Of a stretch of 21,804 bases of DNA, positions 1,502-5,124 are shown piece after piece. The notes beneath the pieces were generated by a model. That model made no database searches and was not told where the DNA came from. It was given only the letters and a program-made list of their open reading frames with translations. A program made the translations under genes and the position numbers. Position 1 is the first letter of the stretch. The number at the start of each line of letters is the position of its first letter. This DNA is from Minisyncoccota bacterium (GTDB taxonomy: Bacteria > Patescibacteriota > Minisyncoccia > Phycocordibacterales > JBAYGS01): NCBI GenBank assembly GCA_041666545.1, contig JBAYGS010000001.1, positions 1-21,804 of the forward strand. Reading direction: 5' to 3'.

Positions 1502-1529
1502 TTGACAAAAAAACTGGTTATGCTATACT
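1502..1529 (+). promoter_or_regulatory. Near-consensus sigma70-type promoter: TTGACA, 16-nt spacer, TATACT
   Basis: TTGACA lies at 1502-1507 and TATACT at 1524-1529 with canonical spacing. No protein-coding ORF of meaningful size lies downstream before the terminator at 1802-1835. Confidence 0.5.
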
Positions 1530-1536
1530 AGTATCA

Positions 1537-1835
1537 ATTCGGCTAGGAGTGCTTATGTCGTTGGCTAGGTCTCGTTGATGACCGCAAGCCCGCTCCCTCC
1601 CGAAGATAATAGTACAAACCCATCGGCGGCCCCCGCATGCGTTGCTAAGGGGCCATAATGAAAGAGTCTTGACCAACGGCCAAATCGCTAAACCGGTCAT
1701 GATTCTTGTATCCCGGCACCGGGCAAAACGCCCGACCAAAGGAGGTGAGTCCAATTCACTAGCTAAAATCATATAATTAAAACAAATCGGCGCGAGCCGT
1801 AGAGGTGGACCGCAAGGCCCACCTCTTTTTCTTTT
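1537..1835 (+). ncRNA. Candidate ~300-nt non-coding transcript bounded by the consensus promoter at 1502 and the intrinsic terminator at 1802
   Basis: There is no plus-strand ORF of 60 aa or more in the interval. The transcript would contain internal hairpins (GGCCCCCGCATGCGTTGCTAAGGGGCC at 1628-1654) and ends with GAGGTGGACC-gcaa-GGCCCACCTC followed by TTTTTCTTTT. Its identity is unknown. Confidence 0.3.
1802..1835 (+). terminator. Intrinsic terminator: GAGGTGGACC-gcaa-GGCCCACCTC followed by TTTTTCTTTT
   Basis: A perfect 10-bp GC-rich stem with a tetraloop is followed by a T-tract. Confidence 0.6.
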
Positions 1836-2745: not shown

Positions 2746-3687
2746 ATGAAGACAATAAAAGAAATCAATCGATTGCAGAGACTCCAGTTTTCTCTCAGGT
2801 TGAAGCTTGGTAAGGATGCGTTGCCACAGATTAGAAAGGTGCTCGGTCTTACCGTTAACGATTCCCTGAGGGCCGGCATAGCGGAGCAAAAGAGGCATTT
2901 TATTCGTCGGGTCAAATCGGCCAAAAATTGTGTCCAGTGGGCGGGCCTGGCTAAGACCGATAACTTGGGCAAGAAACAGCGCGACCAGTATGCGGCCAAA
3001 GCCCTAAGGTTGGCCAAAACGAGCGACGACTGTCTCATGGCGGCCGAGGCGGCTGTCGAGGGGGGAGTCGTTTGGCGTAAAGCTGTGGACAAGGCCGAGA
3101 CGATAATTGGCACCCAACTGGTTCAGGCGACTGACATCAAGGTCGTTTCAGAAATCAATATCGAAAAATTGCCGACTTGGAGCAATATGCGAAAGTTGGT
3201 GACGGAGAAACTCAGAGTTCTTGCCATCAATGAATTCGCGAGTGCCCATACTACCGAGGATTGTTTACAGATCTCTCGGCGCACCTGGCAGTATTCCTTT
3301 CAGGTACCACTGTCAGGTCTGAATCATCAGATTTTGCGTCGGGCAGTAAAGCTGGCCGATACCGAGCAGAAGTGTCTTGCCGTTCGAAATTTCGGCAATG
3401 ATAGGATAATTCTGAAGTTGACAGAAAGAAAGCTTAAGAAGATTTTGACCGAAAGGCTCAACGAGGCCAAGACTTTTCAAGCTTGCTTTGATCTTTGGTC
3501 GAGGGCTCCACACAACAGCAGGATCGAGCGGCTCGTCATGAAGAAAACTTTCAAGCTGGCTCGGTCGGTGACTGATTGGGTGTCAGTCTGGGGCCGAGTG
3601 TGGCTCGACAAGGACAAGCGGGTTGTCATCCGGGCGCTTGCCAAATTGGCCGAGCGTGGCCGATTGGGCTGGTGTCTTCGTGAATGA
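2746..3687 (+). CDS. Hypothetical alpha-helical protein (313 aa)
   Basis: The long ORF starts at an ATG preceded by CCCAGAAAGGTTCTCTCAA and is followed by copy B of the terminator module. No recognisable family. Confidence 0.5.
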   Translation: MKTIKEINRLQRLQFSLRLKLGKDALPQIRKVLGLTVNDSLRAGIAEQKRHFIRRVKSAKNCVQWAGLAKTDNLGKKQRDQYAAKALRLAKTSDDCLMAAEAAVEGGVVWRKAVDKAETIIGTQLVQATDIKVVSEINIEKLPTWSNMRKLVTEKLRVLAINEFASAHTTEDCLQISRRTWQYSFQVPLSGLNHQILRRAVKLADTEQKCLAVRNFGNDRIILKLTERKLKKILTERLNEAKTFQACFDLWSRAPHNSRIERLVMKKTFKLARSVTDWVSVWGRVWLDKDKRVVIRALAKLAERGRLGWCLRE

Positions 3688-3697
3688 TCCACATTCC

Positions 3698-3905
3698 TAA
3701 GAATTAAAACCGCCCCGACCTTGTAGCAAGCGTCGGGGCTTTCTCTTTCTCTCTTAATTTTTCCCCCTCTTTCTTCTCTTCTTTTCTTCATACTTATACC
3801 TATACTTTATACTTATACTTCTTTTTCATACCATATACCCTATACCATATACTTCATACCTTCTTTTTCTACCATATACCATATACTATATACCTTATAC
3901 TTCTG
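3698..3905 (+). repeat. Copy B of the repeated 3' module, with an expanded ~115-bp TATAC[C/T]/TTCTTTTTC minisatellite (3790-3905) running up to the dnaX start region
   Basis: The core 3698-3786 matches 2569-2657. The downstream part contains three reiterations of a TTTTTC-(ATACC/TATAC)n unit where copy A has one. Confidence 0.8.
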
Positions 3906-3934
3906 TGCCCCTGCTTTTCTGCTATACTATCCCC

Positions 3935-4969
3935 ATGCACGAAGTCGCACTCTACCGAAAATATCGTCCAAAAAACTTCAAAGAAGTCTCCGGCCAGGAC
4001 GAGGTTGTCCGGGTTCTGGAAGGCGCGATTAAACAGGAGAAAATCGGCCACGCCTATATTTTTTCCGGCCCGCGCGGTACCGGCAAGACCTCTGTCGCAA
4101 GAATTTTCGCCGAAGCCATCGGCACTACCGGCAACGACCTCTACGAAATCGACGCCGCTTCAAACACCGGAGTCGACAACATTCGGGACTTGCGCGAGGC
4201 CATCAACACTCTGCCTTTCGAATCACCCTATAAAGTCTATCTAATAGACGAAGTGCACATGCTCTCCAAAGGCGCCTTCAACGCCTTGCTAAAGACCCTC
4301 GAAGAACCGCCCAAACACGCGATTTTCATTCTGGCTACCACCGAATTTCACAAAATTCCCGAGACGGTCGTTTCCCGTTGCCAAGTTTTCAGTTTCAAAA
4401 AGCCGTCTCTTTCCTTGCTCAAGGAGATGATTATTGATTTGGCGAAGCGCGAGGGTTTTACTCTCGAATCGGCCTCGGCCGATTTGGTGGCCCTCTTATC
4501 CGAAGGTTCCTTCCGCGACGCTCAAGTAATTCTCCAAAAAATCCTAAGTTCGGCCAAAGCTAAGAAAATTTCGAGTGAAGAAGTCGAGGCGATTACCGGC
4601 GCGCCGAAGGCGAGCCTGGTTAATCAATATTTGCAGGCGCTTGGTAGCGGGGAAGTCGAGCCGGGACTTCAAGCCTTGACGGAGGCCGAAAAACAAAATT
4701 TGGATATCAAAGTTTACGGCAAACTACTTTTACGCAAAGCGCGGGCAGTTTTAATTTTGAAGACCGCCCCGGGAATGGCGAAAAATCTTGAATCTGAATT
4801 TTCCGATTCCGATTTTGCTTTTCTCAAGGAATTGTCGGCAAACAAAAATTCTCGAATCAACTCTCCGGCTCTAATTGAAATCCTCACCGCCGTCGATCTC
4901 GTCGGCTACGCCTCAACCCAGACTTTACCTCTAGAATTGGCGCTGATAAAGTTGACGAATAATAAGTAG
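3935..4969 (+). CDS. dnaX: DNA polymerase III subunit gamma/tau (short form, AAA+ clamp-loader ATPase)
   Basis: The N-terminus YRPKNFKEVSGQDEVV is the DnaX signature. Walker A GPRGTGKTS, Walker B LIDEVHML and sensor-1 SRCQ are all present. The ORF opens at 3905 but the MHEVALYRKYRP start at 3935 fits DnaX N-termini. Confidence 0.8.
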   Translation: MHEVALYRKYRPKNFKEVSGQDEVVRVLEGAIKQEKIGHAYIFSGPRGTGKTSVARIFAEAIGTTGNDLYEIDAASNTGVDNIRDLREAINTLPFESPYKVYLIDEVHMLSKGAFNALLKTLEEPPKHAIFILATTEFHKIPETVVSRCQVFSFKKPSLSLLKEMIIDLAKREGFTLESASADLVALLSEGSFRDAQVILQKILSSAKAKKISSEEVEAITGAPKASLVNQYLQALGSGEVEPGLQALTEAEKQNLDIKVYGKLLLRKARAVLILKTAPGMAKNLESEFSDSDFAFLKELSANKNSRINSPALIEILTAVDLVGYASTQTLPLELALIKLTNNK

Positions 4970-5048: not shown

Positions 5049-5124
5049 TGGGGAGTGGTGTAACCGGTAACACGCTTGCCTTTGAAGCAAGAGACTCTAG
5101 GTTCGAAACCTAGCTCCCCAGCCA
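5049..5124 (+). tRNA. tRNA-Gln (anticodon UUG) with encoded CCA
   Basis: The sequence folds manually into a cloverleaf: acceptor TGGGGAG/CTCCCCA, D-stem GTGT/ACAC, anticodon stem CTTGC/GCAAG with loop CTTTGAA (anticodon TTG), T-arm CTAGG-TTCGAAA-CCTAG, discriminator G, then CCA. Confidence 0.8.

Follow-up and report, generated by a model that had tools for sequence, protein, structure and literature searches.

Is the interval at positions 1502-1835 of contig JBAYGS010000001.1, from an uncultivated, ultra-small Minisyncoccota bacterium of the Candidate Phyla Radiation (CPR)/Patescibacteria, a gene for a small RNA (sRNA)? The interval runs from a strong promoter to a strong terminator over about 300 nucleotides (nt). 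Window coordinates refer to the whole stretch of 21,804 nt that was analysed (the window), and the comparison set consists of the window together with the contigs L064 and L124, the RNA of L124 being carried also by L125. We consider it very probable that the interval is a genuine gene, encoding a folded non-coding RNA (ncRNA) of about 300 bases that is conserved in at least three related lineages. A promoter, a terminator, a stable fold and conservation without coding are all present. The more specific reading, namely a free-standing gene for a structured ncRNA of about 270-300 nt that belongs to an undescribed family so far known only from a small Candidatus Paceibacterota clade, is one on which we are evenly balanced. 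Its main competitor is a cis-acting leader of the downstream genes, and resemblance of the RNA to 23S ribosomal RNA (rRNA) opens a third and more speculative route.

The promoter that had been predicted at 1502-1529 (TTGACA, 16 nt, TATACT) is present. TTGACA (1502-1507) is followed by a 16-nt spacer with a TG dinucleotide (1521-1522) and by TATACT (1524-1529), the sole 11/12 match within the first 6 kb of the window. Promoters of the same quality (11/12 with TG) are found in L064 (1255-1283) and L124 (1444-1472), and all three take the form TTGACA-16/17-TATACT with TG, ending 8-9 nt before helix P1 of the RNA. A CPR 23S rRNA gene is driven by a promoter of this form too (L109, 711-739), which fits a stable and abundant RNA. 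At the other end, the stem of the predicted terminator is present (1801-1811 paired with 1816-1826), but it contains one A.C mismatch, and the tail that had been described as nine uninterrupted Ts reads T4-C-T4 (1827-1835, after the last stem base T1826). All three copies have this terminator; the stem sequence differs between them and pairing is kept at 10 of the 11 positions, at six of these by two-sided changes. Terminator-like hairpins also precede the promoter of the RNA in the window and in L124, so that the unit appears insulated. Thus delimited, transcription would start at the near-consensus promoter, folding would begin 1-3 nt after the predicted start and the transcript would end at the strong intrinsic terminator. 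Features of the unit and of its two neighbouring genes are collected in Table 1.

Table 1. Positions in the window of the predicted RNA unit, its structural elements and the neighbouring genes (MFE, minimum free energy; SD, Shine-Dalgarno; aa, amino acids).
Feature	Position	Strand	Remark
Sigma-70-type promoter, 11/12, extended -10 TGcTATACT	1502-1529	+	Sequence match
Predicted transcript, ~300 nt	1536-1835	+	Start inferred from -10 box; end taken as terminator U-tract
5' domain, irregular hairpin: P1 (TTCGG/CCGAA), P2, P2b, P3 hairpin	1538-1604	+	
Hairpin B (GGCCCC...GGGGCC)	1628-1654	+	In MFE fold
Hairpin C (AGAGUCUUGACC ... GGUCAUGAUUCU)	1663-1706	+	
Hairpin D (CGGGC-AAAAC-GCCCG), resembles 23S helix H19	1720-1734	+	
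Purine tract AAAGGAGGUGA	1738-1748	+	SD-like
Tail motif UAGCUAAAAUC, predicted single-stranded	1760-1770	+	Identical in L064
Small hairpin F (CGGC-GCGA-GCCG)	1788-1799	+	
Intrinsic terminator	1801-1835	+	11-pair stem with one A.C mismatch, loop GCAA, UUUU-C-UUUU
Orphan gene, 161 aa	2073-2558	+	Same strand as RNA, 3' of RNA
dnaX	3905-4969		In the window

Next to the -35 box of this promoter lies a 33-nt inverted repeat (1390-1422 and 1470-1502, 79% complementary, 47 nt apart), which is bordered by TTGAC on both sides and was seen in neither L064 nor L124. It is possibly a small palindromic insertion.

Evidence that the unit is maintained comes from its relatives. The window sits at one end of a 341-kb contig (ENA ERZ27249449 k141_82438), and the protein of its orphan gene is identical to a hypothetical protein of a Candidatus Paceibacterota metagenome-assembled genome. 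The 161-aa orphan protein encoded downstream of the RNA has a single relative (70% identity) in a collection of 5.8 billion proteins, and the contig that encodes it, L064, carries a diverged copy of the whole RNA unit flanked by the same two genes as in the window. A third and more diverged copy was found on L124 (nhmmer E = 4.5e-9), where dnaX is 67% identical to that of the window and the RNA precedes the gene of a 154-aa protein with 40% identity to the 161-aa protein, dnaX coming directly next. The order RNA followed by an orphan gene of 154-161 aa is thus found in 3/3 lineages; dnaX then follows in the window and in L124, the two lineages whose contigs extend far enough, as the L064 contig does not reach the dnaX position. 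Contigs with an identical neighbouring protein (L060-L063) are 100% identical across the region and hence uninformative.

Beyond these three lineages the RNA was not detected. The best species-level relatives of the window's dnaX, among Paceibacterota/Parcubacteria metagenome-assembled genomes, reach at most 60% identity, and nhmmer found no homologue of the RNA beside dnaX in 59 loci of GTDB species representatives. A covariance model of the 5' domain matched within 683 kb of CPR loci only the three lineages, a gapped pattern search for this domain gave no match, and the RNA was not found near dnaX in lineages whose dnaX is at most 65% identical. Among eight relatives, the RNAs beside dnaX were tRNAs only. 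A search via the upstream surface protein gave two remote matches, whose contigs lack the RNA. Phage and plasmid collections held no similar sequence, and in a 16-mer scan of viral contigs 39/39 stretches resembled ordinary ribosome-binding sites, almost all of them lying within about 10 nt of a start codon. In L126 and L127 (dnaX 64-65% identical) a different gene, Dus, and unrelated intergenic sequence lie upstream of dnaX. These regions between Dus and dnaX (L126 4477-4897, L127 8402-8978) span 420-580 nt and have promoter- and terminator-like features and long hairpins; they show neither an Rfam match nor similarity to the window RNA, and they may hold other unannotated RNAs.

The predicted fold is unusually stable. 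The 300-nt transcript has an MFE of -104.5 kcal/mol (z = -4.2), which none of 200 dinucleotide shuffles matches, and the homologues have similar z-scores (L064, -4.5; L124, -4.0). In this fold a hairpin domain at the 5' end would be followed by a central domain of several helices (hairpins B, C and D), and a single-stranded motif, a small hairpin and the terminator would make up the tail. Within the 5' domain an SD-like strand, AGGAGUG, pairs with a C/U-rich strand, CGCUCCCU; P1 (UUCGG/CCGAA) is invariant in the three copies, and the covariance model R1 of this domain scores 80-94 bits on the three lineages. The GGCCCC...GGGGCC hairpin that had been proposed from the window alone is hairpin B, and L064 and L124 each have a hairpin at this position, that of L124 differing in sequence (TGGTG...CACCA). 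The stem of hairpin C is kept between the window and L064 by three two-sided and two one-sided changes (pairs 134-144 with 165-175), and L124 has a shorter hairpin at this position. Hairpin D has an invariant GGG/CCC core, and its closing pair C-G is U-A in L124. In the tail, the counterpart of UAGCUAAAAUC in L124 is UUGACGAAAAUA, at the same place, and the position of hairpin F is occupied by CCGGA-UAA-UUCCGG in L064 and by UCCGG-loop-UCCGGA in L124.

Sequence changes between the copies follow this fold. Across nine helices, 22 pairs are invariant, 5 changed on one side, 28 changed on both sides and 4 are broken, where the 28 two-sided changes have to be read with the qualification that helices B, C and F of L124 were aligned on structure alone. 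In the alignment of the 5' domain (A4), 96.5% of cells are paired, versus 33-58% when the partners are slid by 1-3 columns, and three pairs carry two-sided, compensatory changes. The compensatory changes argue for selection on the RNA fold. Nucleotide identity of the RNA is close to that of the adjacent protein gene (66% vs 72% between the window and L064; 58% vs 56% between the window and L124), and the spacers that flank the RNA are 24-52% identical. A fold with a z-score this low, in a unit that recurs as a whole, 11/12 promoter included, in two diverged lineages, is more than chance.

These observations bear directly on the possibility that the unit is a non-functional remnant or a chance assembly, such as a decayed fragment of an rRNA operon that retained its promoter. 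The rRNA type of the promoter, a short 23S-like segment and the very narrow known distribution would all fit a remnant. However, promoter, terminator and helices were maintained while the neighbouring orphan protein diverged to just 40% identity, the compensatory changes point to selection on the fold and the flanking spacers diverged freely. We therefore regard a remnant as very unlikely.

Could the conserved element be a short coding sequence instead? No ORF is conserved, as the open frames of the window, L064 and L124 agree neither in frame nor in length on either strand, which bears out the initial view that the region has no credible coding potential. Many alignment gaps between the homologues are not multiples of three, and an ORF of 84-102 codons on the minus strand was rejected because its frame shifts between homologues. 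A conserved small ORF would have turned the unit into a micro-protein gene, and none is shared among the three lineages. The remaining form of this explanation is a micro-protein or leader peptide in which the strong SD-like tract would drive a tiny ORF, namely GTG-AGT-CCA-ATT-CAC-TAG for the window, a frame of 6 codons for L064 and ATG-GAA-ACT-TGA for L124. An in-frame stop lies exactly 3 nt before a conserved AAAAU in 3/3 lineages, and L124 has a canonical ATG 5 nt after GGAGG. In the window and L064, however, the sole in-frame start is a GTG inside the SD-like tract, which leaves no spacer. Moreover, the peptides are unrelated in sequence and length, about 200 nt of conserved upstream structure would be left unexplained and the longer frames on either strand break between the homologues. 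A peptide-coding function thus appears the least probable of the explanations considered here, slightly less so even than a remnant. Promoter and terminator are conserved and flank conserved non-coding sequence, as is expected of a free-standing sRNA. Taken together, conservation, compensatory changes, folding stability and the lack of a conserved ORF support the promoter-to-terminator unit for a small ncRNA that had been proposed.

The unit was also compared with known RNA families. A search of Rfam 15 (4227 models) at gathering thresholds, which the original prediction had called for, returned no known family over the unit; tRNA-Gln was the sole match in the window, and ARAGORN likewise found this tRNA (5049-5124) but no transfer-messenger RNA (tmRNA) in the window. 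At E <= 10, matches in 1200-2750 and 1530-1840 were at chance level (best, SAM_alpha with 12.3 bits against a threshold of 36, E = 2.5), and the homologues on L064 and L124 matched nothing in Rfam. Some families were considered in their own right. L064 contains GGUGAGUACCGUCG, which recalls the T-box sequence, but this is absent from the window and L124 and the Rfam T-box model gave no match. Signal recognition particle (SRP) RNA was considered for the proximity of dnaX; on reading the sequence no helix-8 motif was seen. RNase P RNA was set aside as neither a P4 motif on reading the sequence nor a covariance-model match was found. With regard to a rod of the 6S type, in 3/3 copies the first 70 nt fold on themselves into a hairpin, and the terminator hairpin occupies the 3' end. 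Our literature search found no description of lineage-specific ncRNAs in CPR/Patescibacteria, nor of an RNA like this one.

If the RNA is real and non-coding, it might still act in cis. As a 5' leader of the riboswitch or attenuator type, it would sense a signal and set read-through of the terminator, with its promoter driving the orphan gene and dnaX. Several features are compatible with a leader. In 3/3 lineages the RNA precedes the orphan gene and shares its strand, with dnaX following in two; the orphan gene has a -10 box and no recognisable -35 box; riboswitch expression platforms typically carry a masked SD-like tract; and the strands of P2 and of the terminator share a short sequence in L064 and L124, so that alternative pairing is possible. 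However, an antiterminator is not conserved: in folds of the nascent RNA, the window and L064 use different, non-homologous segments as partners for the 5' strand of the terminator, and in L124 this strand has no upstream partner. The distance from terminator to ATG varies widely (237 nt in the window, 90 nt in L064 and 325 nt in L124) over a spacer that is 24-51% identical, and in the window this spacer holds a second and very strong terminator of 13 pairs (1992-2021). A TATAAT box (2043-2048 in the window) lies 24-25 nt before the orphan ATG in 3/3 lineages, and the block around it is nearly identical in the window and L064 while the remaining spacer diverged. Furthermore, the SD-like tract is not followed by a start codon in two of the three lineages, terminator-like hairpins separate the RNA promoter from upstream sequence in the window and L124, and the promoter shares the form of the L109 23S rRNA promoter. 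On the strength of the missing antiterminator, the variable spacer, the separate TATAAT box, the upstream hairpins and the rRNA-type promoter we prefer a free-standing sRNA, and consider a leader unlikely though worth keeping in mind.

The spacer itself had been suggested to give rise to a further short transcript (1836-2031). A terminator-like hairpin is present at 1992-2021, whereas the transcript is not conserved, being almost wholly absent from L064 and replaced by unrelated sequence in L124. The window spacer (1836-2072) contains an SD sequence (AAAGGGGGTG) and a 14-codon ORF (1879-1923, MTENSVTGALTYYV), followed by two hairpins (about 1895-1937 and 1940-1990) and then the 13-pair terminator. 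The L124 spacer has an SD sequence and a 9-codon ORF (MNKPPFLSP), and L064 has neither. This arrangement could be an attenuator of the leader-peptide type for the orphan gene, or chance.

Returning to the free-standing RNA, its most conserved element surrounds the purine tract. The SD-like tract AAAGGAGGTGA had been noted at 1739-1749; it is present, one base further upstream (1738-1748). Within it, AAAGGAGG is invariant in the three lineages, and the window and L064 share an identical 23-nt block, ACGCCCGACCAAAGGAGGTGAGT (1727-1749), that contains it. An exposed element that sequesters ribosomes, as had been envisaged, is not indicated. Partition-function folding gives probabilities of being unpaired for the GGAGG core of 0.14 in the window, 0.09 in L064 and 0.19 in L124, and the AAA that precedes it is unpaired in all three copies. 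As the core is predicted to be paired in 3/3 copies, the tract would not provide a free ribosome-binding site. Apart from the GTG inside the tract, no start codon follows it in the window or L064, and no complementary target of the tract stood out within the window. The pairing partners differ. In both the window and L064, the partner of GGA is a UCC that precedes hairpin D. The GGUGAGU segment closes a local hairpin on AUUCACU in the window; in L064 it pairs with a strand just 3' of hairpin B that contains CUCACC. In L124, GAGGA pairs with UCCUC directly 3' of the 5' domain. In these models the purine tract looks like a strand held at a multi-helix junction. Its invariance in the face of changing partners suggests that the sequence itself matters, beyond pairing.

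What the tract might be recognised by is suggested by a resemblance to 23S rRNA. The 18-mer CCCGACCAAAGGAGGTGA, taken from the invariant block, was scanned in metagenome contigs and returned 18 stretches from about nine unrelated families, by our own estimate roughly the yield expected by chance. One of these families (L109 and L117-L119) is CPR 23S rRNA; L117 scores 605.9 bits on the large-subunit rRNA (LSU) model. Hairpin D's 3' strand and the tract that follows match this rRNA. The match in L117 lies at LSU model positions 337-376 and comprises the hairpin cggcc-UGGAAa-ggccg, C-AUA-G and the hairpin gGG-UGAuAGu-CCc. By their position, as two hairpins inside H18, we take these to be H19 and H20 of the H18/H19/H20 three-way junction. 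In E. coli, the proteins uL4 and uL24, which act early in assembly, have their primary binding site at nt 281-359 of 23S rRNA (H18/H19/H20; PMC6426284). The flanks of the seed in the RNA resemble 23S rRNA more closely than shuffled flanks do (p about 0.02), and for the window 23S rRNA ranks top in flank similarity among all seed matches. As the 23S match is one of about nine families from the 18-mer scan, it is partly ascertained.

On this basis the RNA might be an rRNA mimic that copies the H19-junction-H20 segment of 23S domain I and would titrate uL4 or uL24 in trans, as a free-standing counterpart of the ribosomal protein (r-protein)-binding leaders of r-protein operons. Besides the exact 18-mer in CPR 23S rRNA genes (L109, L117-L119) and the 23S-like seed flanks, a 5-bp hairpin (CGGGC/GCCCG) lies directly before the tract as in 23S rRNA, closure of a GG...CC mini-hairpin after the tract is possible in the window and L064, and L124 keeps AUAAG, which is close to the H20 loop AUAG. 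Against mimicry, the flank similarity is modest, with another match (L114) scoring equally for L064, and the rest of the RNA scores at the shuffle mean against 23S rRNA. The Rfam LSU model does not match the RNA, in which AAAAC, GAC or GAAC stands in place of UGGAAA, the highly conserved loop of H19. The ACCAA linker and an H20-like closure are both missing from L124, r-protein genes are found neither in the window nor in the 5.6 kb that follow, and the comparison uses the 23S genes of L109 and L117-L119 rather than those of the three lineages themselves. A miniaturised 23S domain I or a decayed 23S gene was rejected, as similarity outside the element of about 45 nt (the remaining 220 nt) equals the shuffle mean. 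Given this limited evidence, rRNA mimicry is treated as a lead and not as a finding. We hold such a mimic to be improbable, somewhat more so than a leader, and likewise its widest version, a highly expressed free-standing CPR sRNA whose copy of 23S H19-H20 doubles as a perfect SD sequence and which serves in trans as a decoy for uL4/uL24 or for the anti-SD sequence of 16S rRNA.

The CPR 23S genes used here have features of their own. Those of L109 (711-2300) and L117 (1-1279, minus strand) carry insertions of more than 100 nt in domain I; in the Rfam alignment of L117, 136 nt stand in place of 6 and a second insertion measures about 110 nt. A separate promoter (TTGACA-N17-TGCTATACT) precedes the 23S gene of L109 by about 280 nt, and the 1 kb read upstream of this gene shows no evident 16S rRNA.

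How the RNA would work can be outlined from its architecture. It would be made as a discrete, probably abundant species that acts in trans. Its functional site would be the most conserved element, namely hairpin D, a 5-nt linker and the invariant AAAGGAGG tract held in junction helices. This element would most likely dock a ribosomal component, for which the candidates are an r-protein that normally reads the similar H19-H20 junction of 23S rRNA and the pyrimidine-rich 3' end of 16S rRNA.

Several points weigh against a free-standing, trans-acting RNA, among them the structure-only alignment of three L124 helices mentioned above. Of 500 column shuffles of the 5' domain, 41 score as high as the real alignment, and three distinct sequences in all give covariation little statistical power. 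That a transcript is made, where it starts and ends and how abundant it is are predictions from sequence, and the trans-acting mechanism is one that we infer. A cis-acting leader would likewise be compatible with the strictly kept order of RNA, orphan gene and dnaX. Finally, the partner strand of GGAGG differs between the homologues, which makes the junction model a tentative one.

AlphaFold predicts a helical bundle for the 161-aa orphan protein (predicted local distance difference test score, pLDDT, 70), which has no Pfam domain and no significant PDB match (best E = 1.0). Beyond it, a 100-nt direct repeat (2565-2664 and 3694-3793, 96% identical) brackets a 313-aa ORF (2746-3687). The repeat consists of a terminator hairpin and a long C/U-rich tract, and the observation also takes in 2653-2693 and 3820-3901; short tandem repeats of the TATAC type precede the next promoter, and L064 has a similar C/U tract after the orphan gene. 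Since dnaX comes directly after the orphan gene in L124, the 313-aa gene seems to have been inserted, with duplication of the intergenic region. The gene for a tRNA is found just 3' of dnaX, in the window tRNA-Gln(UUG) at 5049-5124. This arrangement is kept in 8/8 Paceibacterota relatives (loci L001-L009) and the linkage is thus conserved.

Besides the tRNA, the window encodes several orphan proteins, an M23 peptidase, a glyoxalase-like protein, a response regulator and others. No ribosomal protein (Pfam on the window ORFs) or RNA-processing gene was found in the window, and no rRNA or r-protein gene among the called genes in the 5.6 kb beyond it. A 1603-aa protein (8425-13236) has internal repeats at 9125-10239 and a GNAT acetyltransferase domain near its C-terminus (residues 1480-1539), and its ORF is flanked by an identical 27-nt hairpin sequence at 8381-8407 and 13241-13267. 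A palindromic element, GTTCCACTTTAG..CTAAAGTGGAACGGG, occurs in three copies (14069-14099, 16209-16239 and 17749-17779) that are 87-100% identical and about 1.5-2 kb apart; it may be a repeated terminator hairpin or an element resembling repetitive extragenic palindromes (REP).

CPR/Patescibacteria genomes are tiny, and a conserved, strongly promoted and elaborate RNA of 300 nt in one of them is likely to be important to the cell. The RNA would add a new family to the structured RNAs without an assigned function; with the family seen in three lineages, its practical value is at present modest. If the mimicry were true, an sRNA that mimics rRNA and is unattached to r-protein operons would tune ribosome production or activity, and a core that imitates the uL4/uL24 site or engages the anti-SD sequence would make it a trans-acting rRNA/mRNA mimic of an undescribed type.

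Finally, the RNA can be compared with known systems. Stelzl et al. are said to have shown that the leader of the E. coli S10 operon mimics the uL4 binding site on 23S rRNA. Like this leader, the window RNA would use its sequence resemblance to H18-H20 to bind an early-assembly r-protein. In contrast, the S10 leader acts in cis within an r-protein operon and by three-dimensional mimicry, whereas the resemblance here is partial and at the level of sequence, with no r-protein gene near. Riboswitch platforms that mask an SD sequence share with the RNA a structured domain followed by a GGAGG held in a helix and an intrinsic terminator downstream, but here no gene follows the masked tract, no antiterminator is conserved and the next gene lies 90-325 nt past the terminator. 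SRP RNA is often encoded upstream of dnaX in Firmicutes. The window RNA shares this position upstream of dnaX and, with 6S RNA, SRP RNA, RNase P RNA and tmRNA, a strong consensus promoter and, as predicted, a discrete terminated transcript; unlike these RNAs, it has no covariance-model match and its ends do not pair into a 6S-like rod. Another group of relevance comprises the orphan structured ncRNAs that comparative genomics has brought to light in bacteria, such as the raiA motif RNA and further candidate classes from the Breaker laboratory. The window RNA differs in that it matches no Rfam family, raiA included, is so far known from three closely related CPR lineages only and contains an invariant SD-like tract. 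Like the RNAs of this group, it would be a discrete RNA of a few hundred nt with conserved helices, its own promoter and terminator, no ORF and a genomic context that does not reveal its function.

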